Assembly: GCA_903832855.1 (NCBI GenBank)
Contig: CAILDB010000012.1
Span: 4,368 to 68,367 of the forward strand
Origin: an uncultured bacterium
Lineage (GTDB): Bacteria; Patescibacteriota; Minisyncoccia; Phycocordibacterales; GWA1-40-21
Reading direction: 5' to 3'
Length of the DNA: 64,000 nucleotides
Part shown: one piece after another, positions 4,173 through 58,205 of the stretch
Layout: each line of letters opens with the position of its first letter
Numbering within the stretch: the stretch's first letter is position 1
Notes under the pieces: model-generated
Told to the model about the DNA's origin: nothing
Databases searched by the model: none
What the model saw: the letters and a program-made list of their open reading frames with translations, nothing else
Program-made: the position numbers and the translations under genes

Positions 4173-4506
4173 AATGATAAAGCCGGAAGATTTAAAAGGG
4201 GCTTCTAGAGAAGTGGATTTAGAAATTGTAAGACAACAAAAAATTGTTGAGATTAACAGATTGTTGGGGTTATATTACGATAAGCTTGAAAAGGATGAAG
4301 TAACTGAACAAAAAGTTGACGAGAATTTGAGGAAACAAATTGAATTGGGCAAGGTCTTAGAATCAAAAGGGTTAGAACCTACAAATTATTTGTTTTGGCA
4401 TATTATGATTGGAAGTACTTTGCCACCAGGAATAAGTGAATCAGATATGGAATTCGATACACCAGAAGGCGATATTGAAAGACTGATAAGGGAAATTACT
4501 GTTTAA
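4141..4506 (+). CDS. hypothetical protein (start probably Met at 4174)
   Basis: ORF only; no recognisable motif. Confidence 0.3.
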   Translation: MPSKKWAGINKMIKPEDLKGASREVDLEIVRQQKIVEINRLLGLYYDKLEKDEVTEQKVDENLRKQIELGKVLESKGLEPTNYLFWHIMIGSTLPPGISESDMEFDTPEGDIERLIREITV

Positions 4507-4570: not shown

Positions 4571-6853
4571 ATGTATTTAAAAAGCATAGAAATAGCAGGG
4601 TTTAAATCTTTTAGCAAAAAGAGCTCTTTGAATTTCAATACTCCTATCTCTGCTATTGTTGGTCCAAACGGCTCGGGTAAGTCAAACGTTGCTGAATCTT
4701 TCCGTTTTGCACTTGGTGAACAATCCATCAAATCGCTTCGCGGTAAAAGGGCGGAAGACCTTATCTTCAACGGCGGTAAGGACGCGCCTAGAGCAAATCG
4801 TGCGAGTGTCAAACTTATTTTCAATAACGTTCAGAGAATATTAAATATTGACCACGACGAGGTTTCTATTGAACGTGTTGTAAATAGAGATTCTTCCAGT
4901 GAATATTCCATAAACGGCAGTCAGGTGAGGTTGAAAGATATTATTGAGCTCCTTGCGAATGCAAATATCGGTGCTTCCGGATATCAGATAATTTCTCAGG
5001 GTGAGGCAGACAAAATTCTTAATGCAAATATAAAGGAGAGAAGGGAGATGATAGAAGATGCACTGGGGCTCAAAATTTTTCAATACAAAAAAGAAGAAAG
5101 TGCGAGGAAGCTCGTGAAGACCGAAGAAAATATAAAACAGGTTGAGTCATTGCGAAGAGAAATTGCTCCGCATATTAAATTTTTGAAAAAACAGGTGGAG
5201 AAAATAGAAGGTTTAGTTTTGATGAAAGACAAACTTTGCGGAATGTATCACGACTTTTTCCGAAGAGAAGAAGAGTATATAAATTTTGAAAAAAAGACGA
5301 TTGCAGAGAATAAAGTTTCTCCGGAAAGCAAAATGCGGGAGCTTGATCACGACCTCACGGTCGCAAAAGAAACCCTTGCAAAATCAAACGCAAAAGACGC
5401 AAAAAGCGACAAAGTCATTGAAATAGAAGAAAAGCTGAAAGAGACGAGACAAAATAAAGACAATTTGATGCGAGATATTGGGCGAGTGGAAGGAGAAATT
5501 TCCTCAATTTTGCGATTGATAAGGAAGCACGAGGATGAAATGAAATCTCAGTCAGATAAAAAGGTGGAACTCTCATCTGTAGAAAATCTTTCCAAGTCCG
5601 TTGATTTAGAAATTACCTCAGCGGAAAAACTTTCCGATATTTCAGAAATTAAAAAAGTCTTCGTTTCTATCAGGAATGTTTTTGCTGAATTTATAAAAAA
5701 ATACGCAAATGAAGATGACGGTTCTGGGGACGATTTGAAAGACGAAGTCAAAAATCTTGAAGTACAGAAAAAAGAGCAGGAAGCCAAGCTATCTCTCATT
5801 AAACAGAGTGAGATTGAACTTTCCGAGCAGTATTCTTTTGTTAAAAGTGAAATTGAAAAAGAAAAAGATTCAAATAGAGATGCAGAAAAATCAGTGTTTC
5901 GAATTATTGCCGAACAAAATGAAATTCGTTCCATTCTGTCCGCGATCAGAAGCAGAGAAGAAAATTTGCGACGCGATGAAGATGATTTAAAAAAAGAACT
6001 TCAGGAAGCTTCAATTCTCGTAGGTGTTTCCGCACTCCACTTTAAAGATTTTTGGCCTACAAAAGAAAATGGCGAGCCGTTGACTTCCGATGAAATTGTA
6101 AAAGAAAATAGGGAAGTTCAGACCGAGAGAAAGCATGTAATGGAGAGAATTAAAATCCGCCTTGAGGATGCTGGGGTTGCCGGTGGGGATGATGTGGTCA
6201 AAGAATACAAAGAAACCACCGAAAGAGATGGGTTCCTTGGGCGTGAACTTGAAGACCTCGTGAAATCATCTGAATCACTCAGAAATTTAATAAAAGAACT
6301 TGATGAAAAAATTACAATAGAATTTCGAACTGGCGTGCAAAAGATAAACACCCAATTCCAAGAATTCTTCAGCCAAATGTTTGGTGGTGGAAATGCATCT
6401 CTCACGATTGTAAAAGAACAAAAACGCAAAAAATCAGATATGAATCTTGGTGTGGAAGATAGTGGGGAAGAAGTTACCGAAGAAAAAGAAGAAGAAAGTG
6501 AAGGACTTGATATTGAAGTTAGTTTACCAAAGAAAAAAATAAAAGGACTCATAATGCTTTCCGGTGGCGAGCGAGCTCTTACTTCCATCGCACTTATTTT
6601 TGCCGTGTCACAAGTCAATCCTCCACCATTTATTATTTTGGATGAGACAGATGCCGCTCTTGATGAAGCCAATTCAAAAAGATACGGCGATATGATAGAA
6701 AGCTTGGCAAAATATTCTCAGCTTATTCTCATCACCCACAACAGAGAAACAATGTCCCGCGCCGGCGTGATTTACGGAGTCACAATGGGCAATGATGGTA
6801 TCTCAAAACTCCTTTCCATTCAATTTGATGAGGCGGTGGCGGTGGCAAAGTGA
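4571..6853 (+). CDS. smc: SMC-family chromosome condensation ATPase, compact 760-aa form
   Basis: N-terminal head with Walker A (GFKSF...VGPNGSGKSNV). C-terminal signature LSGGERALTSIALIFAV, Walker B FIILDETDAALDEAN, and an ITHN D-loop. Coiled-coil middle; no obvious hinge. Confidence 0.7.
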   Translation: MYLKSIEIAGFKSFSKKSSLNFNTPISAIVGPNGSGKSNVAESFRFALGEQSIKSLRGKRAEDLIFNGGKDAPRANRASVKLIFNNVQRILNIDHDEVSIERVVNRDSSSEYSINGSQVRLKDIIELLANANIGASGYQIISQGEADKILNANIKERREMIEDALGLKIFQYKKEESARKLVKTEENIKQVESLRREIAPHIKFLKKQVEKIEGLVLMKDKLCGMYHDFFRREEEYINFEKKTIAENKVSPESKMRELDHDLTVAKETLAKSNAKDAKSDKVIEIEEKLKETRQNKDNLMRDIGRVEGEISSILRLIRKHEDEMKSQSDKKVELSSVENLSKSVDLEITSAEKLSDISEIKKVFVSIRNVFAEFIKKYANEDDGSGDDLKDEVKNLEVQKKEQEAKLSLIKQSEIELSEQYSFVKSEIEKEKDSNRDAEKSVFRIIAEQNEIRSILSAIRSREENLRRDEDDLKKELQEASILVGVSALHFKDFWPTKENGEPLTSDEIVKENREVQTERKHVMERIKIRLEDAGVAGGDDVVKEYKETTERDGFLGRELEDLVKSSESLRNLIKELDEKITIEFRTGVQKINTQFQEFFSQMFGGGNASLTIVKEQKRKKSDMNLGVEDSGEEVTEEKEEESEGLDIEVSLPKKKIKGLIMLSGGERALTSIALIFAVSQVNPPPFIILDETDAALDEANSKRYGDMIESLAKYSQLILITHNRETMSRAGVIYGVTMGNDGISKLLSIQFDEAVAVAK

Positions 6854-6860
6854 CATTTCC

Positions 6861-6892
6861 TAATGTCATCCCGGCGGAGGCCGGGATCCATT
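6861..6892 (+). repeat. family-1 palindromic repeat copy (tgtcatcccggcggaggccgggatccat)
   Basis: 8-bp GC stem atcccggc/gccgggat with a 4-nt loop. One of at least 10 copies in the window. Sits immediately after the smc stop. Confidence 0.8.
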
Positions 6893-9958: not shown

Positions 9959-10189
9959 TGAATTTTGGCATCGGGTTTTCGGAAAAACCCAAATGAGCTA
10001 AATCTAATCTTATATCAAAAGTATTTTTTGTCTGAAGTTTTTTATATTATAGGAGGTTTTTCAATGCCAAAATCTACTACTGGGTGTTGTTTGCATTTTA
10101 TTTTTATGATACACTTTGAATAGGCAGTATAAATAAATTTACAGGTCGAATTACTGCATGATAATAATGAATTAATTTACAAAAAAAAT

Positions 10190-17850: not shown

Positions 17851-17956
17851 GTTAGCTTTTAACTTTTATTATTTTAAATTCTTTTTTTAATTTTTTAATT
17901 TTAGCTTTAGAAAATTTACTGGTGGAATAATGTAAAATATGCTATAATAGATATAT

Positions 17957-18181
17957 ATGAAATTTAGACCAGCATTGTTTTGGGATACCAATCCAGATAA
18001 AATAGATATCCAAAAAAACGCTCAATATATAATTGAGCGAGTTTTGGATTTGGGTGAGGATAAGGAAGTAAGTTGGTTGTGGAAGACATATGACAAGTTA
18101 CTTCTTAAGAACACGGTATTAAAATCTAGGTCGCTTAGACCAAGTTCAAAAACATTATGGACTCTTCTTCTAAAAAGTTAA
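17957..18181 (+). CDS. small protein overlapping the downstream nucleotidyltransferase gene; possible antitoxin-like partner
   Basis: 74-aa ORF whose stop overlaps the start of 18157..18837 by 25 nt, an operon-like arrangement. Confidence 0.3.
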   Translation: MKFRPALFWDTNPDKIDIQKNAQYIIERVLDLGEDKEVSWLWKTYDKLLLKNTVLKSRSLRPSSKTLWTLLLKS

Positions 18182-18837
18182 TAAATTGGCATTATGAAAT
18201 CTTGCCTGTTGAGACGAAACAGGCTCTTGATTTTTTGTCTAAGGAAAAATGGTTAGAAAAATCAGGATGGTATTTGGCTGGCGGGACAGCTCTAGCTTTG
18301 CAAGTAGGAAATCGTAGGTCTGTTGATTTGGATTTCTTCACAACCCAAAAAGATTTTGATGAGAAAAAATTATTAACCAATTTTATTGGAAATTCAAATT
18401 GGCAGACATCTGTAGAAGAAAAAAATACCATCTATGGAGTGCTTTTGAACGCAAAAATTAGTTTTATTGCCTATCCTTTTTTCGTTCCCAAACAAGAATT
18501 CATCCAATATGGCTCAATCAATGTTTTGTCGCCTATTGATATCGCGGTGATGAAGATAATCGCCGTTTCTCAAAGAGGAAGGAAGAGGGACTTCTTTGAC
18601 TTATATTGGTGTGCCAAAAATATTAAATCTTTAGACAATTTAATTACAAAATTAAAAGTTCAGTATCCTTCAGTGGCGCATGATTACAATCATATTTTGA
18701 AAAGTTTGGTTTATTTTGCCGATGCGGAAAGCGACCCAGAACCGGAAATATATTTTAAAGCAAGTTGGAAAGAAGTGAAAGATTTTTTTGAAAAAGAAAT
18801 TCCTAGAATAACAGTTGAATTAATCGGCTTAAATTAA
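18157..18837 (+). CDS. nucleotidyltransferase of the AbiEii/DUF1814-like family (putative abortive-infection / type IV TA toxin component)
   Basis: Motif WYLAGGTALALQVGNRRSVDLDFF resembles the GGTAL...RxSxDLDF nucleotidyltransferase signature. Confidence 0.5.
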   Translation: MDSSSKKLINWHYEILPVETKQALDFLSKEKWLEKSGWYLAGGTALALQVGNRRSVDLDFFTTQKDFDEKKLLTNFIGNSNWQTSVEEKNTIYGVLLNAKISFIAYPFFVPKQEFIQYGSINVLSPIDIAVMKIIAVSQRGRKRDFFDLYWCAKNIKSLDNLITKLKVQYPSVAHDYNHILKSLVYFADAESDPEPEIYFKASWKEVKDFFEKEIPRITVELIGLN

Positions 18838-19039
18838 ATTCTTTGGTGAGTACGGTCTATGAGTTAGGAAATAGGCCTACCAAAGTGCCCAAGTAAGATA
18901 GAAGATGGCGAAGAGATGTCGCTGTAATGTCTTAAGTAAGGAGGGTAATAGATAAAGAAACAGCAGTTTGACCTTGGGGAATATGTCGCCCTAATAAATG
19001 GAGTATTGTTTCCATGATTGTCCTAGGTAAGGTCAGGCT

Positions 19040-19165
19040 AAAAGAGAGTCGGTTCCAATGTCGTTCGTGCCTACTGGAATCCTGATAATGCACAGGTGAA
19101 TGTGAATTCCAATTCGCCTGACAATTCCAATTCTAATATTGGTTGCCGGCTCTCCCGCCGTTTCG
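19040..19165 (+). other. DGR template repeat (TR)
   Basis: Intergenic. In the VR reading frame it encodes VGSNVVRAYWNPDNAQVNVNSNSPDNSNSNIGCRLSRRF, with 8 AAT codons at the positions that vary in VR1 and VR2. IMH* is ..ctcccgcCgtttc. Confidence 0.8.
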
Positions 19166-19172
19166 TTTATTA

Positions 19173-19547
19173 CTAATACCTTACACCTCTTTCATATTTC
19201 AGCCAGTTCATAGCTTGTTTACCTGCCTCTTGGAGATGATTCTCCATTTCCAGATATTTTGGTCCTTCAATCAGTTTACAATTTAAAGCCAGACGAAAGA
19301 GGATTTTGAGAAGTTCTATCTTGGTATTGGTTTGTGAGAGAAGTTTCTCCTTATCCAATTTATTGGCGCAATTTGCCATAATCGTCAGCTCCATTGCCGA
19401 TAAAGTAGTATTTTCTATCTTTTCACCAAGTGTGTATCTCTCAAATTTTGGTAGAGAGAAAATTATCTTATGCACTCTTTCATAAATGACAAAAAGTTCG
19501 GTGAGAAGTGGTATTTCTAATTTTTTAAAACTATGATTATTTTCCAT
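19173..19547 (-). CDS. avd: Avd-like four-helix-bundle protein (23S rRNA IVS protein family) - DGR accessory variability determinant
   Basis: 124 aa. Pattern LPKFERYTLGEKIENTTLSAMELTIMAN ... ELLKILFRLALNCKLI ... YLEMENHLQEAGKQAMNWLK matches the IVS/Avd helix pattern. Lies directly between the TR and the RT. Confidence 0.55.
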   Translation of the reverse strand: MENNHSFKKLEIPLLTELFVIYERVHKIIFSLPKFERYTLGEKIENTTLSAMELTIMANCANKLDKEKLLSQTNTKIELLKILFRLALNCKLIEGPKYLEMENHLQEAGKQAMNWLKYERGVRY

Positions 19548-20510
19548 AAAAATTTTAATGAATTATTTAATCTTGATAATATTTTATCTGCTTGGCAGAT
19601 ATTTCGGCGGGGAAAGACCAGTAAAATGGATGTAAAAGTGTTTGAAAGACATTTGGAAGATAATTTGTTTGATTTATATGAAGAACTGAAAAATAGTGAA
19701 TATATACATAGAGCATACAAGTTTTTTGTAGCATTTGATAGTAAGAAAAGGGATATTCATGTTGCGGAAATTAGAGATAGAATTGTTCATCGTTTGATTT
19801 ACGATTATTTAGTAGAGATGTATGAACCACTTTTTATATCCGATTCATATTCTTCTAGAATTGGTAGGGGGTCACATAAGGCGATAAAAACATTTAGATA
19901 TTTTGCAAAATTAGTCAGTGGAGAAAACCACGGGAGATGTTTCGTCTTGAAATGTGATATTCAAAAATTTTTTCAGAGTGTTGATTGTGACATCATCGTC
20001 CACTTATTGAAGCAAAAAATCACTGATGAAAAAATTTTGAAAATAATGGAAGAAGTTGTCAATAGTTTTAAAGAAGGCATTCCGCTTGGTAATGTTACCA
20101 GTCAAATTTTTGCAAATATTTATTTGAATGATTTTGATTTTTTTGTAAAAAATATCCTAAAGGTTAGATACTATGTTCGCTACAATGATGATTTCGTGAT
20201 TTTAGATAATAACCCAGAACGACTGAGCCTTTTATTAGAAAAAATTAGGGATTATTTGGAAAAAGAAAGATTATTGAAAATACCGGAACATAAGGCAAGT
20301 ATCAGGAAGCTGCAGTGGGGAATTGACTTTCTTGGCTACACTATTTTACCAAATGCTGTCCTACTTAGAAATAAAACAAAAGCAAAAATGTTTTCTCGTG
20401 CAAACGAGAAAAACATAGATTCTTACCTTGGATTACTGAAGCATTGTAATTCGTTTAATCTGCGTCAAAAGCTCATCTTTTGGGTAAATAATAGGGTGTC
20501 ACAACTTTGA
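19533..20510 (+). CDS. DGR reverse transcriptase
   Basis: RT motifs: RDRIVHRLIYDYL (motifs 1-2), GIPLGNVTSQIFANIYL (the DGR-specific [I/L]GxxxSQ in motif 4), YVRYNDDFVIL (motif 5, YNDD in place of YxDD). No maturase or endonuclease domain. Cognate TR lies just upstream. Confidence 0.85.
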   Translation: MIIFHKNFNELFNLDNILSAWQIFRRGKTSKMDVKVFERHLEDNLFDLYEELKNSEYIHRAYKFFVAFDSKKRDIHVAEIRDRIVHRLIYDYLVEMYEPLFISDSYSSRIGRGSHKAIKTFRYFAKLVSGENHGRCFVLKCDIQKFFQSVDCDIIVHLLKQKITDEKILKIMEEVVNSFKEGIPLGNVTSQIFANIYLNDFDFFVKNILKVRYYVRYNDDFVILDNNPERLSLLLEKIRDYLEKERLLKIPEHKASIRKLQWGIDFLGYTILPNAVLLRNKTKAKMFSRANEKNIDSYLGLLKHCNSFNLRQKLIFWVNNRVSQL

Positions 20511-20546
20511 GTTGTTTGATTTGCGATTATTTGTTATTATTTATAC

Positions 20547-21650
20547 ATGGAAAGCTTTGAGGCACTTATACCAAAATTTAGAAAAGCTAAGGCGGAAAAA
20601 GCAGAGACCGCGGAAACTAAGACCGAGGGACTTTTAGTTGAAGAAAAAACCGAATTATTGAGTCAATTAGAAGATCATATACAAAGAGTCAGTACTGAGA
20701 GAGAAAATTTGGAAGCAGAATTAGAAAAAGCCAGGAAATCTGGCAATTTTTCCAAATTTAATAAATTGCAAGAAACCGTCAAAAGTGAAATATCTAAAGC
20801 AGAAGGAATTCAAAGAAAGATTGAGGGTAGGACGACCAGTTCAGAAATTTCCGGTGTTTATTCTTCCATAGATGCTGGAGGTAAAGAAAAAATTGAAGCT
20901 ATTTTATTAAGCTTTGAAGCAGAACTCACTACATGGACTGATTTTTATACTAAACACGGTATTGAGTTACCTGCAGATTTTGCTGAACAGATGCAAGACA
21001 TATGGAATAGAAATGCAGATGTGATGACAGAAGCAATAACAGAAAAGGGATTTGACCGAGCTATATTTATTCCAGAAATAGTTGACGGTGTAGATTTAAA
21101 AAAGATTGAAGAAGAAATGACTAAGAGTTACAAGGAAGAAGCCAAAAAGGCTGGGTTACCTGAGAATGATACTTATTTAGGTATTGATATTAAAAAGGTG
21201 GTCAATTCCAGGACGGGTAGTCGCATAATTCTTATTCATTCTGCTCCAGACTTGACGGCTCAACCAGAACTTTTGAAAACTTTGGATAAAAAATATGGAG
21301 GGGAGAAAACTGATGGTGTAGACAATAAAGCCGAGGATTTCATTAAGGCGGGTGAAGAACTCACTTTGTCTGAGTGGTTTATCTTTCAGAGAGAAATTTG
21401 GGAAAAGACTGGTGTTCATCTTGATGGCAAGAAGGGGTCCGATGGCTATGTCAAACCTACTTGGTGTGGAGGGTCACGGATGGGTTCGGGAGTCGGTTCC
21501 CATGTCGTTCGTGCCTGCTGGTATCCTGTTTTTGCCGGGGTGGATGTGGTTCCCATTCGCCTGTCTATTCCGTTTCTAGGTTTGGTTGCCGGCTCTCCCG
21601 CTGTTTCCAATAAGTTAGCTTTTAACTTTTATTATTTTAAATTATTTTAA
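20547..21650 (+). CDS. DGR target T2 (coiled-coil N-terminus, conserved module, VR2). The C-terminal reading frame is disrupted by a 1-nt deletion in VR2
   Basis: Shares the module, including a 93-bp stretch identical to T1. After ..GVDV the frame is -1 relative to the TR and reads through the expected stop into the conserved 3' flank (..VPIRLSIPFLGLVAGSPAVSNKLAFNFYYFKLF). Confidence 0.6.
   Translation: MESFEALIPKFRKAKAEKAETAETKTEGLLVEEKTELLSQLEDHIQRVSTERENLEAELEKARKSGNFSKFNKLQETVKSEISKAEGIQRKIEGRTTSSEISGVYSSIDAGGKEKIEAILLSFEAELTTWTDFYTKHGIELPADFAEQMQDIWNRNADVMTEAITEKGFDRAIFIPEIVDGVDLKKIEEEMTKSYKEEAKKAGLPENDTYLGIDIKKVVNSRTGSRIILIHSAPDLTAQPELLKTLDKKYGGEKTDGVDNKAEDFIKAGEELTLSEWFIFQREIWEKTGVHLDGKKGSDGYVKPTWCGGSRMGSGVGSHVVRACWYPVFAGVDVVPIRLSIPFLGLVAGSPAVSNKLAFNFYYFKLF
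21484..21607 (+). other. DGR variable repeat VR2 (with a 1-nt deletion relative to the TR)
   Basis: All substitutions versus the TR fall at TR adenines, including the 5' extension (TR aaaagag against VR2 gttcggg). IMH is ggttgccggctctcccgcTgtttc. Confidence 0.75.
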
Positions 21651-21665
21651 TTTTTTCTTTTCCCC

Positions 21666-21728
21666 TTTGTCATTCCTGCGTAGGCAGGAATCCATCCCTT
21701 CTGTCATCCCAGCGGATGCTGGGATCCA
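21666..21728 (+). repeat. two tandem family-1 palindromic repeat copies (variants cattcctgcgtaggcaggaatc and catcccagcggatgctgggatc)
   Basis: Sequence identity to the other copies, with compensatory stem changes. Confidence 0.75.
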
Positions 21729-21753
21729 GTATTTAATTTATGAAATCATATCT

Positions 21754-28950: not shown

Positions 28951-28992
28951 GTCTGTCATCCCGGCGAAGGCCGGGATCCATCCCTTCTGTCT
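28951..28992 (+). repeat. family-1 palindromic repeat copy immediately after the rpoC stop
   Basis: tgtcatcccggcgaaggccgggatccatcccttctgtc. Confidence 0.8.
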
Positions 28993-29059
28993 TTGCGAGG
29001 GTTTTCCCGAAGCAATCCAGTTCTTCAAAATTTGTTTATTAATTTATTAATCTAATTAA

Positions 29060-37335: not shown

Positions 37336-38190
37336 ATGTTAGATTTAATTATTTTAGGATTTACGGAGGGAATCACTGAGTTTTTGCCTATTTCATCTTC
37401 TGGACATTTGATATTGATTAGAGATATTTTTGGGATGAAGACAGGTTTTGATTTGTCTTTTGACGCGGTTTTGCAACTTGCTACTGGGCTTGCTCTCGTA
37501 GTATATTTTTGGAAAGATATTTGGAATCTGATCGTCACTTTTTTTTCACTTCTGTCATCCCGGCGCAGGCCGGGATCCATCTCTGACCCGATGGATTCCG
37601 TTCTACAACGGAATGACAATCGGGAACAAGATGACAGAAAAAGAAATTGGATTTTGATTTGGGCAATCATCCTCGGCACAATTCCCGCTGTCATCGGCGG
37701 ACTTCTTTTACAGAAACAAATGGATACGGTTTTTAGAAATTTACACCTTGTCGCTTATGTTCTCATTGCCGGAAGTATCGTAATGTATCTTGCAGAATGG
37801 TTTTCAAAACAAAATAAAGAACTCACTGTCGGTAAAGGATTTATCGTCGGACTTTTTCAGTGTCTCGCACTTCTCCCCGGATTTTCTCGCTCTGGCGCAA
37901 CCATTTCCGGTGGACTTTTCATGGGCTTCAATAGGGAACAGGCAGCGCGATTTTCCTTTTTGCTTTCAATACCAATTATCGTTGGCTCAGGTCTCTTAAA
38001 ACTTTTTGAGCTCATTCATAGCCACGAACTCGGAGGTCTTGGCCTTCCGCTTCTTGTCGGTTCGCTCGTTGCTTTTTTGTCAGGGCTTCTTGTCGTTCAT
38101 TATCTCCTCAAATTCCTCAAAAATCACAAATTAAATATTTTTGCATACTATCGCGTGATTTTGGCGCTCATAATTTTGGCCTTTTTGTAA
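37336..38190 (+). CDS. uppP: undecaprenyl-diphosphatase carrying an in-frame family-1 repeat insertion in a loop
   Basis: LGFTEGITEFLPISSSGH ... LPGFSRSGATISGG signature motifs. Residues RRRPGSISDPMDSVLQRNDNREQ are encoded by the repeat. Confidence 0.8.
   Translation: MLDLIILGFTEGITEFLPISSSGHLILIRDIFGMKTGFDLSFDAVLQLATGLALVVYFWKDIWNLIVTFFSLLSSRRRPGSISDPMDSVLQRNDNREQDDRKRNWILIWAIILGTIPAVIGGLLLQKQMDTVFRNLHLVAYVLIAGSIVMYLAEWFSKQNKELTVGKGFIVGLFQCLALLPGFSRSGATISGGLFMGFNREQAARFSFLLSIPIIVGSGLLKLFELIHSHELGGLGLPLLVGSLVAFLSGLLVVHYLLKFLKNHKLNIFAYYRVILALIILAFL
37550..37640 (+). repeat. family-1 palindromic repeat (extended multi-hairpin variant) inside the uppP coding sequence
   Basis: tgtcatcccggcgcaggccgggatccatctc, plus additional hairpins (gatccatc..gatggattc; ccgttctacaacgg). 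Confidence 0.75.
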
Positions 38191-40762: not shown

Positions 40763-40771
40763 AATAATCTC

Positions 40772-40808
40772 CTCTGTCATCCCGGCGAAGGCCGGGATCC
40801 ATCTTAAT
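40772..40808 (+). repeat. family-1 palindromic repeat copy upstream of the GIY-YIG gene
   Basis: ctctgtcatcccggcgaaggccgggatccatcttaat. Confidence 0.8.
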
Positions 40809-40819
40809 TTCTTAATCTT

Positions 40820-41134
40820 ATGGAAACTTACTCTGTCTATATTCTTGCTAGTAAAAAGGAAGGAACCTTATATATTGGTGTAACTTCAGATCTAGAAAAA
40901 AGGGTCTGGCAACATAAGAACAAAATTATCAAAGGATTTACAGAGAAATACAATGTAAATAAATTGGTCTATTACGAACAGACAGGAAATGTAGAATCAG
41001 CACTAACTAGAGAAAAGCAATTAAAAGAATGGCAGAGAAGATGGAAAATCAGACTGATTGAAAAAGATAATCCAGAGTGGAATGACCTCTATGAAGAATT
41101 AAGAACAGATGGATCCCGACCTGCGTCGGGATGA
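40820..41134 (+). CDS. small GIY-YIG nuclease superfamily protein
   Basis: YSVYILASKKEGTLYIGVTSDLEKRVWQHKN ... YYEQ..N...ALTREKQLKEWQR resembles the GIY-YIG core. The last 9 codons are supplied by an inverted family-1 repeat. Confidence 0.7.
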   Translation: METYSVYILASKKEGTLYIGVTSDLEKRVWQHKNKIIKGFTEKYNVNKLVYYEQTGNVESALTREKQLKEWQRRWKIRLIEKDNPEWNDLYEELRTDGSRPASG

Positions 41135-41140
41135 CAGAGG
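41109..41140 (-). repeat. family-1 palindromic repeat copy, inverted orientation, overlapping the GIY-YIG 3' end
   Basis: ggatcccgacctgcgtcgggatgacagagg is the reverse complement of the family-1 consensus. Confidence 0.75.
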
Positions 41141-41750: not shown

Positions 41751-42359
41751 ATGACAAAGAGGCCACATGACAGTAACTTTCGGCAAACTATTCCGGTAAG
41801 GGTGGATATCGGTAAAAAACCGAATATGCCACCTGACGACAGGTTCCACAAAAATGTCTTCGGATTGGATCCGAAGGATGCCCAGCACATTACAGACAAT
41901 GTTGATGAGCACGGCGTCATGTGGGTTTCCATTTTGGATCCTGTCTATCCGGCTGGATGTGGAAAGCGAACTGTTTTTGGAGCTATGCAAATTATTCACG
42001 CTTTGGGAGGGTATCCTCTGAACGTGAAGGAGGCGCATGCTGGGGCTGAAGCCATTGAGAGGATGATCGCGCACAATTTTTCGGAGGTATCAAAAGTTGG
42101 TGTTGCCTTTCCGTGTTTGGGTACACAGTACTATTCACCGGAAGATGAGCATCCAGCTTTTACTCTCTTGTGGCATCGGCTCTTGGAAGGTGCTTCTTGT
42201 CACAGGTTCCATTTCTGTCGTCTCATGAAGTTTTGGCCGGACGCTGTTCGAGAACCGCTTTTTTGTCCGGCAGAGTGGAGAATTCCTTTCGCTATTCCGG
42301 CTGAATCTGTTAGCAGTTTTACCGCTGCGATAGTGCCAGACGAAGTTGAGGTTGAGTAA
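41751..42359 (+). CDS. hypothetical protein encoded in a GC-rich island
   Basis: AAGGGAG Shine-Dalgarno 7 nt upstream. GC content is markedly above the flanks. Bounded downstream by family-1 repeats. Confidence 0.35.
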   Translation: MTKRPHDSNFRQTIPVRVDIGKKPNMPPDDRFHKNVFGLDPKDAQHITDNVDEHGVMWVSILDPVYPAGCGKRTVFGAMQIIHALGGYPLNVKEAHAGAEAIERMIAHNFSEVSKVGVAFPCLGTQYYSPEDEHPAFTLLWHRLLEGASCHRFHFCRLMKFWPDAVREPLFCPAEWRIPFAIPAESVSSFTAAIVPDEVEVE

Positions 42360-42410: not shown

Positions 42411-42441
42411 CTCTGTCATTCCTGCGGAGGCAGGAATCCAG
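42411..42441 (+). repeat. family-1 palindromic repeat (variant cattcctgcggaggcaggaatc)
   Basis: Sequence similarity to the other copies, with compensatory stem changes. Confidence 0.7.
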
Positions 42442-42573
42442 TTCTTATTTTCTGGATTGCTTTCTTACAGAAACTGTCCACTCATTGGATCTTTTGTTTC
42501 GCATTGCTCACAAAAGCCCTCAATGAGTCTTGCAGAAGCAAATACTTTTGCTTCCTCACATTTCACTCGCAAA

Positions 42574-42617
42574 GACAGAGGGGATGGATCCCAGCCTTCG
42601 CTGGGATGACAGAAAGG
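42574..42617 (-). repeat. family-1 palindromic repeat, inverted relative to the 42411 copy
   Basis: gacagaggggatggatcccagccttcgctgggatgacagaaagg. Confidence 0.7.
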
Positions 42618-42621
42618 ATTT

Positions 42622-44424
42622 CTACAAATCATTCAACTTTTTTGTCTGGCTTCTTTCGTTACGAGACCTGTCTGTTTTTGTTAAATTCTTTTTTCGTAAA
42701 CGAACATTTTTAGGAGTAATTTCTAGAAGTTCATCATGTCGCATAATTTCAAGACCTCTTTCAATATCAAGACGAAGCGGTGGAGTAAGATAAATAGATT
42801 CATCTGAACTTGTCTTTCTCATATTTGTCAGCGCTTTTCCTTTTGTTGGGTTTACATCCATTTCATCACCTTTGGTAACATTTCCGATGACCATTCCTTC
42901 ATAAACTTCAGTCGCAGGATCAATATAAATAGAACCTCTTTCTTGCAAATTCCAAAGAGAAAATGCGAGAGCTTTCCCCGTCTCCATTGAAGTCATTGAA
43001 CCATATTCTTGCTTTCTTATTTCTCCAGCATAGGGTTTAAAACCGATAAATCTAGAACAAAGAATTCCTTCACCACGAGTATCCACCACAAATTGTCCTT
43101 TGTATCCGAGAAGTCCTCTTGTTGGCACATCAAAAATAATTCGACAATGATTTTCGTTTGTTTTCATTTCTGTCATTATTCCTTTTCTTCTGCCAATTTT
43201 ATCAATTACATTTCCAGAATATTCTTCGGGAACATCTATTGTAACTTCTTCAAACGGCTCAACTTTTTCTCCATTTATTTCTTTAAAAATTGCTTGGGGT
43301 TGAGAAACCTGAAGTTCGTAACCCTCGCGTCTCATATTTTCCAAAAGGATCGCAATGTGAAGCTCGCCTCGTCCGTAAACCAAAAGTGGCTCTGAATTAA
43401 AATCAATTTTTAGACCAACATTTACTTCCAGCTCTTTTTCAAGTCTTTCTCGTATCTGTCTTCCAGTCACAAATTTTCCTTCTTGCCCTGCAAAAGGGGA
43501 GTCGTTGACCAAAAAGTTTAGGGAAATAGTGGGCTCATCAATTGGAATTGAAGAAAGGGGAGTCTGCTCACTATTTTCAATAATTGTCTCTCCTATAAAT
43601 GCATCAGGAATTCCTGCAACCATCACAATATCTCCACACAGTGCTTCTTCTACGGCTTCTTTTGCCATTCCATTAAAAGTGTAAAGTTTTGTAATCCTGT
43701 ATTTTTTGATTTCTCCATCGGGAGTTTTTGTAAAGATAGTTTGTCCGTCTTTTATTTTTCCTTCATAGATTCTAGCCACGGCAAGTCGTCCAAGGAAATT
43801 ATCATATCCCAAATTAAAAATTTGAGCTTTTAAAAGTGAGTCAATTTTATTTTCTGCAGGTTTAACATTTTCTAAAATACAATCTAAAATTGGCGATAAA
43901 TCTTTTTGTTCATCTGCCAAATTTTTCATAGCAACGCCATTTCTTCCAATTGCGTAAATAACAGGGAAATCCAACTGCTCGTTGTTTGCACCGAGTTCCA
44001 TAAAAAGTTCCAAAACTTTTTCGTGGGCTTCCTCTGGCTTTGCGGCGGACTTGTCTATTTTATTTATAATAACAATTGGTTTAAGACCAATTTCTAGAGA
44101 TTTTTTTAGAACAAATTTTGTTTGAGGCATTGGACCTTCTTGGGCGTCAACGACTAAAAGAACTGAATCAATGGATTTGATAACTCGTTCAACTTCAGAT
44201 CCGAAGTCGGCGTGTCCGGGAGTGTCAACGATATTTATTTTCGTGCCTTTGTAAAAGACAGAAGTATTTTTTGCATAAATAGTAATACCGCGCTCTTGCT
44301 CGAGTTTGTTTGAGTCCATTGTCAGGCCTTCCATATTTACTCCGCTTTGTTTCATCAAAGCGTCGGTAAGGGTGGTCTTGCCGTGGTCCACATGGGCGAT
44401 GATTGCGATATTTCGTATTTCCAT
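42622..44424 (-). CDS. typA: translational GTPase BipA/TypA
   Basis: [18 protein letters not shown]1 motif, [13 protein letters not shown]. Start taken as MEIRN; the ORF track start is 69 nt further upstream. Confidence 0.85.
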
Positions 44425-44610
44425 AATTTGATTTGACGGGCGCAATTTTTTGCCGCAAAAAATTGCGCCGATAAGAAAAGCGCCGAAGCGCATATCTATC
44501 TGTCTATTAAAGCATATTTTTAATAAAAAAGGAAGCTTTTATAAATATACTGAAAATATAATAAAAAAGCTGGCCTCGTGAGGGTCAGCTCTAAAGTCAA
44601 ACGAATCTGC

Positions 44611-48036: not shown

Positions 48037-49209
48037 ATGAAAAAATATTTAATAATAAATCCAGGAAGTGCATCCAGAAAATACGCGCTATATGAAGGCG
48101 AAAAAGAACTCGCTTATATGCATATTGAGAGTGAAGAGGGGGGGAATGAAATTAGCACTGTTACTGCACAAGGTAAAAAAGAAAAGAAAAATATTAGTGC
48201 TGAAGATTTTGATAAGTCGTTTGAATATACATTAAATGAACTCATAAAAGCTGGGCTTATTGCGAGCAAAGAGGATATTGCGGTCTGCGGAATTAGAGTC
48301 GTCGCTCCTGGAAATTTTTTCTTGCAAGATAAAATAATAAATTCTGAATATAAAAAATTGTTGAAAAAAGCTTTTGAAAAAGCGCCTCTTCATATTGCGC
48401 CAATTTTGGAAGAAATTAAAAAAATACGATATGCAATTGGAAGAATTCCTTTAGTTGGTATTTCGGACAGTGCGTTTCATTCCAGTATGATGGAAAAGTC
48501 CAAGAGATACGCAATACCATCTGAGGATGCAGAAAAATTTGAAATTTTCAGATATGGCTATCACGGAATTTCTTTGAGGTCTATTGTTTCAAAAATGGAA
48601 AAATCAGGGCCAATTCCAGAAAATGTAATTATCTGCCACATTGGTGGGGGTGTCAGCGTAACCGCGCTCAAAAATGGTAAAAGCATAGATACTACTATGG
48701 GACTTACTCCACTTGAAGGAGTCGTAATGGCGACAAGGGTGGGTGATATTGATTCTGGAGCGGTTGTTTATTTGTCCAAAGTAAAAAAGTTGAAAGGCAA
48801 AAATCTTTTGCAATACTTAAATAAAAAATGCGGACTTCTGGGAATAAGCGGGAAAAGTGATGATGTTCGCGATTTGATTAAAGCCGAAAACGAGGGCGAC
48901 AATCTTTCAAAACTTGCTCTTGATATGTATGCCTACAAAATTCAAAAATACATTGGTGCCTATGCAGTAGCTCTCGGTGGTCTTGATACAATTGTTTTTT
49001 CTGGAACAGTGGGGGAGAGATCTTTTTTGATGAGAGAAAGAATTTGCAAGGGGCTTGGATTTCTCGGTGTTGAAATAAATTCAATATTAAATAACACATC
49101 AGATAGTATAGATGTCGTCTTGAGCTCTCCAGAATCAAAAGTAAAAGTAGAAGTGGTCAAGACTGATGAAATGGCACAGATGGCAAAAGATACTGCAAAG
49201 TTTCTATAA
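48037..49209 (+). CDS. ackA: acetate kinase
   Basis: LIINPGSASRKYALYE N-terminus; HIGGGVSVTALKNGKSIDTTMG; VGERS motif. Confidence 0.85.
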   Translation: MKKYLIINPGSASRKYALYEGEKELAYMHIESEEGGNEISTVTAQGKKEKKNISAEDFDKSFEYTLNELIKAGLIASKEDIAVCGIRVVAPGNFFLQDKIINSEYKKLLKKAFEKAPLHIAPILEEIKKIRYAIGRIPLVGISDSAFHSSMMEKSKRYAIPSEDAEKFEIFRYGYHGISLRSIVSKMEKSGPIPENVIICHIGGGVSVTALKNGKSIDTTMGLTPLEGVVMATRVGDIDSGAVVYLSKVKKLKGKNLLQYLNKKCGLLGISGKSDDVRDLIKAENEGDNLSKLALDMYAYKIQKYIGAYAVALGGLDTIVFSGTVGERSFLMRERICKGLGFLGVEINSILNNTSDSIDVVLSSPESKVKVEVVKTDEMAQMAKDTAKFL

Positions 49210-49210
49210 T

Positions 49211-49251
49211 CCCTTCTGTCATCCCGGCGGAGGCCGGGATCCATCTTAATC
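49211..49251 (+). repeat. family-1 palindromic repeat copy after the ackA stop
   Basis: cccttctgtcatcccggcggaggccgggatccatcttaatc. Confidence 0.8.
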
Positions 49252-49296: not shown

Positions 49297-49617
49297 GGCT
49301 CCGGAGGTAGGGATCGAACCTACGACCAATCGCTTACATTTGTTCCAAAATTTCTTTTGGCATGGACTATATCATCATCCTTCACAAAATTGTGAATTGG
49401 ATGTGGGGCGTTTCCCGGGATTTAAAAAATCCAAGTACTCTCTTTCGAGATAGTCTCTGAACCTTCAAGTCATGAGTGACTTGCTTGGCTGCTGATTGCC
49501 CGTTCGCCTCAAGCGAATTTGGGTTTCCAGCAATTAACCTCATTTTTCATCCTAAATTACTTTAGGAAGCTGCAAGTACGCTTACAGGCGATCGCTCTAC
49601 CGCTGAGCTACTCCGGA
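49297..49617 (-). tRNA. tRNA-Asn(GUU) interrupted by a 247-nt group I intron in the anticodon loop (between positions 35 and 36). The mature form has a class I variable loop, discriminator G and an encoded CC
   Basis: 5' exon 49584-49617 (TCCGGAG TA GCTC AGCGGTA GAGC G ATCGC CTGT). 3' exon 49297-49336 (TAA GCGAT TGGTC GTAGG TTCGATC CCTAC CTCCGGA G CC). Acceptor, D, anticodon and T stems all pair. The anticodon loop CUGUUAA is the same as E. coli tRNA-Asn. Confidence 0.65.
49337..49583 (-). ncRNA. group I self-splicing intron within tRNA-Asn
   Basis: Contains the canonical group I core elements R (GTTCAGAGACTA) and S (TGATATAGTCC), which form P7. The 5' exon ends in U, the intron ends in G (..caaatg), and a GCAG at intron position 11 could form P1 with exon CUGU. 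Confidence 0.65.
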
Positions 49618-49810
49618 GCCTAAAAATCATTTTTACCTATTAAGTTGTTTAAAGAACGGTGCCCTTTTTGAGCAAACTCATACTATCAGAAAATTCTAAA
49701 AAAATAAAGGGCGTGGTGTCTGCATAAGTAAAATTTGAACCCTCATTGCATTTATTGTAAAAAAGAGTATTTTATGTGTGGAAGTAGGTCTCAAACATGA
49801 GGAGAAAAAC

Positions 49811-51428: not shown

Positions 51429-51437
51429 TGCTATAAT
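51429..51437 (+). promoter_or_regulatory. extended -10 TGCTATAAT ending 6 nt before the purF-1 ATG (near-leaderless transcript)
   Basis: The same TGCTATAAT element lies 9 nt before the purF-2 ATG (56805-56813). Confidence 0.4.
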
Positions 51438-51443
51438 GTTGGC

Positions 51444-52826
51444 ATGGAAAAAATTGGAGAAAAATGTGGGGTCTTTGGTATTTATGGAAAAGGCCTAGAT
51501 GTCAGTCGTCTCACATTTTTCGGGCTATATGCACTTCAGCATCGAGGTCAAGAAAGTTCAGGAATATCTTCTACCGATGGAAATGAAATTTTTTGCCACA
51601 AAAACAACGGTCTGGTCTCTCAAGTTTTCAATGAAGAAATAATTAAAAGTTTGAGAGGACATATCGCGATAGGACACAATAGATATTCTACTTCATCAGG
51701 CTCTGGAGCAGAGCACGCACAGCCTGTCGAAGTGTCTGATGGAAGCATTACTTTGGTTCATAACGGAAATATTCCAAGCGTAGTTAAGCTTCTCGAAATT
51801 TTAAAAAAGAAAAATGTTACACTCACAGATGCTTCTGATTCAAAGATAATTACCGAGATTCTTCATTGTCTAATAAAAGAAGGAAAGTCTTTTGAAAAAG
51901 CAGTTGAAGAAATTTTTCCACTTCTCATTGGTTCGTTTTCTATTTTAATAATGAATAAGGAAAAAATTATTGCCATCAGGGATAGTTTTGGAATTCGCCC
52001 CCTTTCTATCGCAAAATTAAATGGTGGATATGTGTTTGCCTCGGAAACCTGCGCCTTTCATCCTATCGGTGCTGTATATTTTAGAGATGTTGAGCCTGGA
52101 GAAATGGTAGTGGTGGATGAAAATGGTCTGAGAATAAAACAAATAATGAAAGGGAATCAAAAGTTGGATATTTTCGAATTCGTATATTTTTCTAGACCCG
52201 ATAGTGTCCTACTTGGTCAGTCCGTCTATGAAGTTAGGAAAAATTTTGGCATTCGCCTTGCAAAGGAATATAAAATAGATGCTGATGTGGTAATTCCTGT
52301 TCCTGAGACAGCTATACCTGTGGCGATAGGTTATGCAAATGCATCTGGTATACCTTTTGAAATGGGGTTGATAAAAAGCAGATATATTCACAGAACTTTT
52401 ATTGAGCCAGAACAGCATATTCGTGAGCAAGGAGTGAAGCTCAAGCTTGCTCCGCTCAAGGAAGAAATAGAAAATAAAAGAATTATTATTGTTGATGATT
52501 CTATTGTGAGAGGAACGACATCAAAGCAAATGGTTAAAATGCTTTTTGAAACAGGTGCTAGGGAAGTGCATTTTCTTGTGAGTTCTCCACCGGTAAAATT
52601 TCCGGATTTTTATGGCATAGATTTGCCTATTCAAAAACATCTTTTGGCAAACGGAAAAAGTGTTGAGGAGATGCGAGATTATTTGGGTTGTACATCTCTA
52701 AATTTTCTTTCATTTGATGGAATGATAGAAGCAACAAATATTCCTAAAGATAAATTTTGTACCTCATGTTTTTCCGGTATATATCCCATAGACTTATCTG
52801 AAAGGAAGAATGATTTTAATTGTTGA
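51444..52826 (+). CDS. purF: amidophosphoribosyltransferase (class II glutamine amidotransferase + PRTase), copy 1
   Basis: N-terminal nucleophile MEKIGEKCGVFGI; LQHRGQESSGI; PRTase loop IIVDDSIVRGTTSKQ; C-terminal Cys cluster CTSCFSG. Confidence 0.8.
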   Translation: MEKIGEKCGVFGIYGKGLDVSRLTFFGLYALQHRGQESSGISSTDGNEIFCHKNNGLVSQVFNEEIIKSLRGHIAIGHNRYSTSSGSGAEHAQPVEVSDGSITLVHNGNIPSVVKLLEILKKKNVTLTDASDSKIITEILHCLIKEGKSFEKAVEEIFPLLIGSFSILIMNKEKIIAIRDSFGIRPLSIAKLNGGYVFASETCAFHPIGAVYFRDVEPGEMVVVDENGLRIKQIMKGNQKLDIFEFVYFSRPDSVLLGQSVYEVRKNFGIRLAKEYKIDADVVIPVPETAIPVAIGYANASGIPFEMGLIKSRYIHRTFIEPEQHIREQGVKLKLAPLKEEIENKRIIIVDDSIVRGTTSKQMVKMLFETGAREVHFLVSSPPVKFPDFYGIDLPIQKHLLANGKSVEEMRDYLGCTSLNFLSFDGMIEATNIPKDKFCTSCFSGIYPIDLSERKNDFNC

Positions 52827-56781: not shown

Positions 56782-56822
56782 AAAATATCTTTTTCTTTTT
56801 TACCTGCTATAATAGTGCCAGC

Positions 56823-58205
56823 ATGGAAAAAATAGGAGAAAAATGTGGAGTTTTTGGAATTTATGGCAAAGGCTTGGATGTCAGCCGTCTCACGTTTTTT
56901 GGACTATATGCACTCCAACATAGAGGTCAAGAAAGTTCAGGGATATCTTCTACTGATGGCAATGAAATATTTTGTCACAAAAATAATGGTTTGGTCTCTC
57001 AGGTTTTTAATGAAGAAATAATAAAAAGTTTAAAAGGTCACATAGCGATAGGGCACAACAGATATTCCACCTCATCTGGTTCCGGTGCTGAGCACGCTCA
57101 ACCCGTTGAAGTGAAGGATGGAAGTATTACTTTGGTTCACAATGGTAATATTCCAAGTGTAGTAAAACTCCAAAAAATTCTAAAAAAGAAAGGTATCAAT
57201 ATCACAGATGTTTCCGATTCAAAGATAATTACTGAGTTATTGCATTGTTTAATTAAAGAGGGGAAGAATTTTGAAAAGGCCGTTGAAGAAATTTTTCCGC
57301 TTCTCATTGGTTCGTTTTCTATTTTAATAATGAACAAAGAAAAAATTATTGCGATTAGAGATAGTTTTGGAATACGCCCCCTCTCAATAGCAAAATTAAA
57401 TGGAGGTTATGTTTTTGCTTCAGAAACTTGTGCTTTTCACCCTATTGGTGCTGTATACTTTAGAGATGTAGAACCAGGGGAAATGGTGATAGTAGATGAA
57501 AGTGGTTTGAGAATAAAACAAATAATGAAGGGTACTCAGAAATTGGATATTTTTGAATTTGTTTATTTTTCGCGACCGGACAGTGAACTACTGGGGCAAT
57601 CGGTTTATGAAGTCAGAAAAAGATTTGGTATCAGGCTTGCAAAAGAATATAAGATAAAAGCAGATGTGATAATTCCTGTTCCAGAGACCGCAATACCTGT
57701 TGCGATAGGGTATTCAAATGCCTCTGGAATACCTTTTGAGATGGGGTTGATAAAGAGTAGATATATTCACAGGACTTTTATTGAGCCTGAACAACATATC
57801 CGCGAACAAGGAGTTAAACTAAAGCTCGCTCCGCTCAAAGAAGAAATAGAAAACAAAAGCATTATTATCGTAGACGACTCTATCGTCAGGGGGACGACAT
57901 CCAAACAAATGGTCAAAATGCTTTTTGAAACAGGCGCTAGGGAAGTGCATTTTCTCGTTAGTTCTCCACCAGTAAAGTTTCCAGATTTTTATGGTATTGA
58001 TTTACCTATTCAAAAACATCTACTTGCAAATGGAAAAACCATAAAAGAAATGCGGGACTATCTTGGGTGCACATCATTAAGTTTTCTTTCTTTCAATGGA
58101 ATGATAGAGGCAACACATATTCCAAAAGACAAATTTTGTACCTCCTGTTTTTCTGGTGAGTATCCTATAGATATCTCAGAAAGGAAAAAAGATTTCAAAT
58201 CTTAG
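56823..58205 (+). CDS. purF: amidophosphoribosyltransferase, copy 2 (about 93% aa identity to copy 1)
   Basis: Same motifs as copy 1. About 85% nucleotide identity, mostly synonymous differences. Confidence 0.8.
   Translation: MEKIGEKCGVFGIYGKGLDVSRLTFFGLYALQHRGQESSGISSTDGNEIFCHKNNGLVSQVFNEEIIKSLKGHIAIGHNRYSTSSGSGAEHAQPVEVKDGSITLVHNGNIPSVVKLQKILKKKGINITDVSDSKIITELLHCLIKEGKNFEKAVEEIFPLLIGSFSILIMNKEKIIAIRDSFGIRPLSIAKLNGGYVFASETCAFHPIGAVYFRDVEPGEMVIVDESGLRIKQIMKGTQKLDIFEFVYFSRPDSELLGQSVYEVRKRFGIRLAKEYKIKADVIIPVPETAIPVAIGYSNASGIPFEMGLIKSRYIHRTFIEPEQHIREQGVKLKLAPLKEEIENKSIIIVDDSIVRGTTSKQMVKMLFETGAREVHFLVSSPPVKFPDFYGIDLPIQKHLLANGKTIKEMRDYLGCTSLSFLSFNGMIEATHIPKDKFCTSCFSGEYPIDISERKKDFKS

Follow-up and report, generated by a model that had tools for sequence, protein, structure and literature searches.

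Hairpin Doublet within the uppP Gene

The DNA considered here, called the window, is a stretch of 64,000 nucleotides (nt) from a bacterium of the Candidate Phyla Radiation (CPR; Patescibacteria). It corresponds to positions 4,368–68,367 of the forward strand of contig CAILDB010000012.1 (assembly GCA_903832855.1). The window carries an intact uppP gene, which encodes an undecaprenyl-diphosphatase of the BacA family, and inside this open reading frame (ORF) lies a palindromic repeat that recurs at other places in the same DNA (Table 1). The frame passes through the repeat unbroken. An earlier note, made from the letters alone, had recognized this in-frame palindrome and had described it as one extended copy of a repeat family. 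The assignment to the family holds; the single copy has to be replaced by two inverted units, A and B, which stand 10 nt apart and are enclosed by a perfect 10-nt inverted repeat (TTCTGTCATC at 37550–37559 and GATGACAGAA at 37630–37639). The conceptual translation contains the peptide ..RRRPGSISDPMDSVLQRNDNREQ.., exactly as the note had quoted it, and PGSISDPMDSVLQR is an example of a tryptic peptide that would span the insert.

The whole window was searched for exact matches to the family pattern GTCATYCC-N8-12-GGRATCC. This search gave 11 matches, compared with 0.00 expected. All aligned units begin with TGTCAT and finish with ATCCA, and each forms a stem of 8 bp with a loop of 4 nt. Stem columns 5–12 pair with columns 17–24 in 100% of the cells, and the pairs 5–24 (A-T) and 6–23 (T-A) never vary. 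Compensatory double changes occur in four of the eight stem pairs and one-sided changes in none. The covariation score of the stem is 0.451, whereas shuffled alignments give 0.152 and alignments with the partners slid give at most 0.16. The hairpin itself is thus the conserved feature. Unit A agrees with the 11-copy consensus at 27 of 28 positions, its sole difference falling on a variable loop base, so the nucleotide identity to the other copies that the note had reported is real. Unit B differs from the consensus at six stem positions, which form three compensated pairs and leave the 8-bp stem perfect.

The 106-nt repeat region of uppP folds into a Y-shaped structure in which two hairpins are closed by the outer stem. 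The energy of this fold is −28.4 kcal/mol as DNA (z = −7.1) and −44.1 kcal/mol as RNA (z = −6.4), and no shuffled sequence was as stable. The insert also stands out by its GC content (53%, against 37% in the window). A terminator scan found no T-runs after the uppP hairpins, and for this reason they are not predicted to be intrinsic terminators. With Rfam at gathering thresholds, nothing was found at the repeat; the single match in the whole window was a group I intron elsewhere. Four of the six reading frames are open through the uppP block and five of six through a single unit, so the survival of such an insert in frame is not improbable.

Extended Loop of a Conserved Enzyme

The protein encoded by uppP matches the Pfam profile BacA (PF02673) with E = 2.1e-84 over profile positions 2–257 of 257. 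Against the Protein Data Bank (PDB), it matches 5oon with E = 3.6e-42, and the two structures of Escherichia coli BacA, 5OON and 6CB2, are both found at about 4e-42. Both motifs of the family are present, namely EGITEFLPISSSGH (E-x3-E-F-L-P-I/V-S-S-x-G-H) and PGFSRSGATISGG (P-G-x-S-R-S-G). In an alignment of 65 sequences, the window protein retains all 52 invariant columns, including both catalytic motifs. When the loop is left out, the ratio of nonsynonymous to synonymous divergence (dN/dS) is 0.065 against a related genome, L001, and 0.063–0.089 against three orthologs at a synonymous divergence (dS) of 1.4–1.8. The AlphaFold2 model has a mean predicted local distance difference test (pLDDT) score of 91.9 and a predicted template modelling score (pTM) of 0.88, and its TM-score against 5OON is 0.80/0.84. 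The sequence collection contains the identical 284-residue protein on 49 contigs (68 blocks) from many samples, which excludes an artefact of assembly. A GC-rich palindrome in an AT-rich gene is admittedly the type of feature that misassembly can yield. With the ORF intact, all invariant residues in place, the low dN/dS, the confident model, and the recurrence of the protein, it is scarcely credible that uppP is either a pseudogene or a product of faulty assembly.

A search of the database for UppP homologs found 7823 proteins, and the closest ones mostly have 262–267 residues compared with 284 in the window. The nearest orthologs without the repeat (P0003, P0004, and P0005) are 76–80% identical to the window protein. 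P0004 and P0005 share the gene order of the window, with a Thioredoxin_4 gene on the minus strand, uppP on the plus strand, and an RNase_H_2 gene on the minus strand. These orthologs are shorter exactly at the loop. Between the conserved motifs FF and LI(W/F)AIILG, there are 36 residues in the window UppP and 14 in the repeat-free orthologs, and the repeat block is also absent at the DNA level from the syntenic loci L003 and L004. The earlier note was therefore right about a longer loop but not about its size, given as about 28 residues: the net gain is 22, while about 30 codons are derived from the repeat. The gain would be smaller than the block because the ancestral sequence of the loop has gone. 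In the alignment, loop length varies freely across the UppP family.

The loop with the insert aligns with residues ~70–90 of E. coli BacA, between helices H3 and H4. In that protein, both termini are periplasmic, the re-entrant pair h1/h2 enters from the periplasmic side, the active-site pocket has a periplasmic opening, and a short amphipathic helix, H3', sits in the H3–H4 connection (PMC5852022). From the periplasmic termini and the re-entrant pair, it follows that H3 ends in the cytoplasm. By homology, the insert loop is thus the cytoplasmic H3–H4 connection, which is non-catalytic and remote from the active-site pocket. The insert encodes a hydrophilic stretch with eight basic and six acidic residues, and this charge is compatible with the positive-inside rule for a cytoplasmic loop. 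The only low-confidence blocks of the AlphaFold2 model are at residues 71–100 (block means 74, 52, and 74), and residues 76–94 are modelled as coil. The model has helices at residues 59–75 and 95–129, so that H3 and H4 run on into repeat-encoded residues.

Assignment to the CGTC Repeats

Di Nocera, De Gregorio, and Rocco (2013, PMC3733652) described a class of repetitive extragenic palindromic sequences (REPs) named after a terminal CGTC tag. In their definition, the tag is often TGTC or CCTC, the stem of 8–9 bp starts with complementary A-T residues, the loop has 4–5 nt, and the unit ends in a CCA tail. Family 1, with an 8-bp stem and a 4-nt loop, is equated there with the dRS3 repeats of Neisseria and with the Rickettsia palindromic element (RPE) RPE-6 of R. 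conorii. The same authors place most copies just downstream of ORFs and some within genes, and state that REP-associated tyrosine transposases (RAYTs) are lacking. Over half of the copies inserted in genes form dimers or groups, which encode 20–30 residues, and some genes were struck twice (PMC3733652).

The window repeat agrees with this description at every point. The TGTC tag is invariant in all 11 units, the 8-bp stem has A-T residues at its first two positions, the loop reads G-N-A-G/T, and the CCA tail is invariant. The copies are dispersed, lie mostly just 3' of ORFs, and form inverted pairs. On sequence grounds, the repeat has all the published defining features of CGTC family 1. The "RPE-like" character proposed in the earlier note is therefore more than an analogy, since the class includes RPE-6 (PMC3733652). 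The likeness extends to the TGTC variant of the tag, to copies mostly no more than 20 nt after ORFs, to dimers and inserts of 20–30 residues, and to genes with two inserts, such as uppP in L001. The differences lie in the host and in the target. CPR bacteria are not named in the passages of that paper drawn on here, and the genes highlighted there are DNA-repair and RNA-related genes, whereas UppP is a polytopic membrane enzyme. In addition, the tails of the uppP doublet face each other, while the paper has mostly "HH" dimers, whose head/tail convention may differ (PMC3733652).

As with RPE-1 (Ogata et al.), a palindromic repeat stands in frame within an essential gene, encodes a hydrophilic surface segment, and spares the fold. 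Likewise, the window repeat lies inside a conserved ORF, keeps its frame, and is absent from orthologs. RPE-1 is a longer palindromic insertion of another sequence family (PMC3733652), whereas the window element is a doublet of 28-nt units. A literature search for in-frame palindromic repeats in Patescibacteria returned nothing specific.

Two other classes of small repeats have to be weighed, REPs with a GTAG tag mobilized by RAYTs and Correia-type miniature inverted-repeat transposable elements. REP doublets forming hairpins (REPINs) replicate as two short hairpin repeats in inverted arrangement (Bertels and Rainey 2011, PMC3116915), an architecture shared by the uppP doublet. L002, a second assembly of an L001-like organism, moreover contains a 66-aa gene next to thrS (13254–13454) that is annotated with a weak Y1_Tnp match (IS200/IS605-type). 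REPINs are nevertheless extragenic, carry a GTAG tag, and are linked to RAYT tyrosine transposases (PMC3116915). The tag here is TGTC, and the CGTC REPs have no RAYT according to Di Nocera et al. (PMC3733652). No gene like the Y1_Tnp gene of L002 was seen in the window, in a search for Y1 transposases that was not exhaustive. The Correia elements of Neisseria (Correia repeat enclosed elements, CREE, or Neisseria miniature insertion sequences, NEMIS) resemble the window repeat as small non-autonomous repeats in or beside genes. Their length is greater, and they end in conserved inverted repeats of their own (TATAGTGGATTAACAAAAA..). This terminal repeat has no match with three or fewer mismatches in the window, and the gene flanked by units encodes a GIY-YIG protein. 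It is very improbable that the element belongs to either class. The parallel to Correia elements that the earlier note had drawn thus falls away, and the relevant relative in Neisseria is dRS3 with its longer form, NTS.

Candidate Nuclease Partner

Chenal et al. (2025, PMC11893778) showed that SsnA, a single-domain GIY-YIG nuclease of about 100 residues that is specific for single-stranded DNA, binds and cuts at NTS, whose sequence is CGTCATTCCCGCGMAVGCGGGAATCYRG. In Neisseria, such hairpins modulate transformation. Homologs of SsnA from different phyla have hairpins of this kind on either side, the Ssn-related motifs (SRM), for which the expression HGTCWYN(0-2)YYVSBRHN(0-5)WNVSBRGN(0-2)RNCYNB was given (PMC11893778). 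The similarity of NTS to the repeat is seen when it is set beside the window sequence, TGTCATCCCGGCGNAGGCCGGGATCCAT. Unit A of uppP matches the SRM expression, and the window contains four matches where shuffled sequences lead one to expect 0.09.

The window also holds a gene for a putative single-domain GIY-YIG nuclease, a candidate Ssn-family partner of the repeats. It lies 3 kb downstream of uppP, between inverted units at 40775 (+) and 41136 (−), the right-hand one of which contains the final eight codons of the gene. As in the NTS-ssnA-NTS module, a gene of about 100 codons for a single GIY-YIG domain is thus placed between inverted hairpins. In L001, which is syntenic with the window, the cassette and a small upstream ORF are absent between hisS and an RRM gene. 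With tblastn, homologs that are 57–65% identical and have the same inverted flanks were found in metagenome-assembled genomes (MAGs) of Pirellulales (Planctomycetota) and of beta- and gammaproteobacteria (L087, L069, L038, and L066). The cassette missing from L001, together with the flanked homologs in other phyla, suggests a horizontally mobile module like NTS-ssnA-NTS. A homolog with 45% identity adjoins a unit in a MAG of Devosia, a genus listed as rich in SRM (PMC11893778). A PDB search with the GIY-YIG protein gave only spurious matches to WD40 repeats and a weak UPF0213 match. The Ssn paper does not treat intragenic copies or CPR genomes, and the literature on CGTC REPs and RPEs is not cited in it (PMC11893778).

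Origin and Maintenance of the Insert

Another state of the uppP site is found in L001, a locus of a Minisyncoccia MAG (GCA_049695975.1) that is syntenic with the window over 20 kb and whose UppP is 82% identical. This protein (P0002, encoded at 10001–10873 of L001) contains two separate in-frame inserts derived from hairpins, one in the H3–H4 loop and one in the H5–h6 loop, both of them cytoplasmic. At the identical position and in the identical frame as in the window, L001 has TGACATTTCGACGAAGATCGGGGTCCAT, a decayed unit with 7 of 28 positions changed and none of the changes compensated. After it comes a second type of hairpin, likewise decayed, and the net gain there is 11 residues. Beyond the first unit, the loop sequences of the two genomes differ. 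The second insert, GTCATTGCAAGCGAAGACGGAGCAATCCAG, is translated as VIASEDGAIQ. No canonical unit was found in the 20 kb of L001, and its positions after rpoC and ackA, occupied by units in the window, are empty. Between the two uppP genes, dS is 1.43, which is near saturation. The pristine doublet of the window therefore cannot have been passively inherited from an insertion in a common ancestor. From these two genomes, three readings of its state remain: a recent copy (the site would then be a hot spot), a refresh by gene conversion from other copies, or selection as DNA.

Under the last of these readings, the hairpins of uppP would be dual-coded, and they would be kept as targets of an Ssn-type nuclease or as boundaries of recombination or transformation. 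Both units are pristine despite the divergence from the nearest relative, with unit B showing compensated pairs only. Decay is seen in L001, which lacks both a canonical unit and the GIY-YIG cassette in its 20 kb, and in Neisseria SsnA does cut such hairpins, which modulate transformation (PMC11893778). A recent insertion or gene conversion, however, explains the pristine state equally well, and the comparison includes two genomes only. Selection at the DNA level is unlikely, although it is the least unlikely of the alternatives. It is similarly doubtful that the uppP loop is a repeatedly used or actively maintained site for Ssn-type hairpins. If nuclease-linked targeting or gene conversion did act here, rather than a recent chance insertion, the paired filled and empty sites of these small CPR genomes would make the mechanism by which CGTC/SRM hairpins spread directly testable, and the "protein-coding palindromes" of Rickettsia would be linked to Ssn nucleases.

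The extended loop might also have been co-opted by the protein, for regulation or for an interaction on the cytoplasmic face. Two lineages retain a repeat-derived loop at one and the same place and in one frame, and the model prolongs H3 and H4 into it. The loop sequences of these lineages diverge after the first unit, however, and the insert has pLDDT values of 52–74. Furthermore, most orthologs do without the extension in a family in which the length of this loop is not constrained. A role at the protein level is accordingly quite improbable, more so than selection of the hairpins as DNA.

Very probably, a convergent hairpin doublet became coding sequence of uppP, replaced the 14-residue loop between H3 and H4, and persists as a tolerated passenger in an enzyme that, judged by its conservation and its model, remains functional. 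According to this explanation, a doublet of two 28-nt units, each with a TGTC tag, an 8-bp stem starting from A-T, a 4-nt loop, and a CCA tail, would have entered uppP and taken the place of the ancestral loop. Since the block is a multiple of three and has no stop codon in the frame used, it would be translated as a hydrophilic stretch. The likely routes of arrival are a process of mobility or recombination by which such hairpins spread, or gene conversion from other copies. By analogy with the NTS-ssnA-NTS module of Neisseria, the spreading process would probably be linked to the GIY-YIG gene 3 kb away.

Several observations weigh against parts of this explanation. A gain of 22 residues from a block of 30 codons requires that about eight ancestral codons were lost, a loss that is deduced rather than observed. 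Only 4 of the 11 units of the window pass the strict SRM expression, the other seven failing only on letters of the loop or stem. With regard to the mechanism of insertion, no target-site duplication and no consistent junction was found in the three filled/empty pairs (ackA, rpoC, and uppP). A similarity, TTTC(C)TATAA, flanks the ackA copy and is partly the conserved leader of the repeat itself, ATAATC; nothing comparable is seen at the rpoC and uppP sites.

In-frame dimers were already described for this class of repeats in 2013 (PMC3733652). The phenomenon as such is therefore known, and the host group and the target protein are new. In-frame CGTC/SRM inserts are extended to CPR bacteria, and a mobile hairpin would have been absorbed by an essential membrane enzyme for which empty, filled, and decayed sites can all be compared. 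The case also joins the literature on CGTC REPs and RPEs, elements described as "lacking a dedicated transposase", to the Ssn GIY-YIG nucleases reported in 2025. Beyond these papers, it modestly adds the link between intragenic CGTC/RPE copies and Ssn, the contrast of a pristine and a decayed unit at one codon position, and clean filled and empty sites in CPR genomes. For annotation, peptides such as SSRRRPGS, VIPAQAGIH, CHPGAGRDP, MDPGLRRDD, and WIPACAGMT in proteins are recognizable as read-through of the repeat.

Occurrence of the Repeat in Other Genomes

A scan for TGTCATYCCNGCGNAGGCNGGRATCCA with one genome per species gave at least 120 stretches. Among the matches listed (120 loci), to which all counts in this paragraph refer, there are Proteobacteria, Planctomycetota, Bacteroidota, Chloroflexota, many lineages of Patescibacteria, a Rickettsia endosymbiont, and a MAG of Nanoarchaeota. 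Adjacent pairs are convergent in 48 cases, divergent in 6, and tandem in 6. Most gaps within pairs measure 13–40 nt; counted in this way, the gap of the uppP doublet is 14 nt. Given this agreement in orientation and spacing, the uppP insert is the standard doublet form of the family. GIY-YIG genes account for gaps of ~296–317 nt. About 6 of the 152 units with the exact pattern lie inside credible genes (Table 1), and in five of these genes (L049, L021, L019, L077, and L068) the 27-nt unit is in frame.

Table 1. Repeat units and associated genes in the window, followed by intragenic copies in other genomes. Positions without a locus name are those of the window.
Feature	Position	Strand	Basis or remark
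uppP (undecaprenyl-diphosphatase, BacA family), intact	37336..38190	+	284 aa; Pfam, PDB, alignment, dN/dS, AlphaFold2
Repeat-derived insert in uppP, ~90 nt / ~30 codons (residues ~72–102)	37550..37639	+	outer inverted repeat, fold; edges +/- ~10 nt
Hairpin unit A, TGTCATCCCGGCGCAGGCCGGGATCCAT, translated S-S-R-R-R-P-G-S-I	37553..37580	+	27/28 equal to family consensus; SRM motif match
Spacer between units A and B, 10 nt	37581..37590	.	direct reading
Hairpin unit B, TGTCATTCCGTTGTAGAACGGAATCCAT on reverse strand	37591..37618	-	family pattern match
Putative single-domain GIY-YIG nuclease gene, 104 aa, candidate Ssn-family partner of the repeats	40820..41134	+	Pfam GIY-YIG E=1.3e-15
Family copy, left flank of GIY-YIG gene	40775..40802	+	pattern match
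Family copy, right flank of GIY-YIG gene	41109..41136	-	encodes the last 8 residues of that gene
Family copy	6864..6891	+	11 nt after stop of ORF 4571..6853
Two tandem family copies	21668..21729	+	after stop of ORF 20547..21650
Family copy and second-type hairpin (GTCTTTGCGAG..GCAATCCAG)	28954..29020	+	between rpoC stop and conserved terminator
Two inverted family copies around ~146 nt of other hairpin motifs (mosaic)	42414..42611	.	pattern match
Family copy	49217..49244	+	8 nt after ackA stop; site empty in L001
Intragenic doublet, IleRS, Rickettsia endosymbiont	L049 1641-1770		Pfam match covers first unit of doublet
Intragenic doublet, TruB, Pseudomonadota MAG	L021 1689-1767		Pfam match spans insert
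Intragenic unit, N6_N4 DNA methylase, Nanoarchaeota MAG (DPANN archaeon)	L019 1509-1535		Pfam match spans insert
Intragenic unit, ELM1-like protein, Sulfurovum assembly (enrichment culture)	L077 5911-5937		Pfam match spans insert
Intragenic unit, Wzy_C membrane protein, Paceibacterota MAG	L068 1504-1530		Pfam match downstream of insert
Intragenic doublet, large ORF, Omnitrophota MAG	L110		exact pattern

Other Copies and Features of the Window

Within the window, 8 of the 11 units stand 8–55 nt downstream of a stop codon and are oriented as that gene, and there are three inverted pairs. Between the stop codon of rpoC and its conserved hairpin terminator, an 85-nt block (28954–29040) combines a family-1 unit with a second type of hairpin, GTCTTTGCGAGGGTTTTCCCGAAGCAATCCAG; in L001, the terminator is present without the block. 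The mosaic at 42414–42611 encloses motifs of the GTCTTTGCGAG..GCAATCCAG type and resembles bacterial interspersed mosaic elements (BIMEs) or neisserial intergenic mosaic elements (NIMEs). Its neighbours are ORF 41751..42359, for which Pfam gave no match, and a gene on the minus strand (42622..44493). The units at 40764–40808 and 49206–49250 share 45 nt with 93% identity, including the leader ATAATC and the trailer CTTAAT. At 49207–49209, the leader supplies the TAA stop codon of ackA, which suggests that a copy of the repeat can provide the gene upstream of it with a stop codon.

The window has some further features. The group I intron (RF00028) matches at 49344–49593 with 80.3 bits (E = 8.7e-19), within 49297–49640 on the minus strand, and splits a tRNA-like gene at the anticodon region. 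With ARAGORN, no tRNA is detected in the window as it stands; once the intron is removed in silico, one is found, Tyr-GTA or Leu-TAA depending on the boundary. More direct repeats are present among ORFs around 17172–21660. A direct repeat of 300 nt (51433–51732 and 56812–57111, 84% identity) belongs to two paralogous ORFs of 460 aa, 51444..52826 and 56823..58205.

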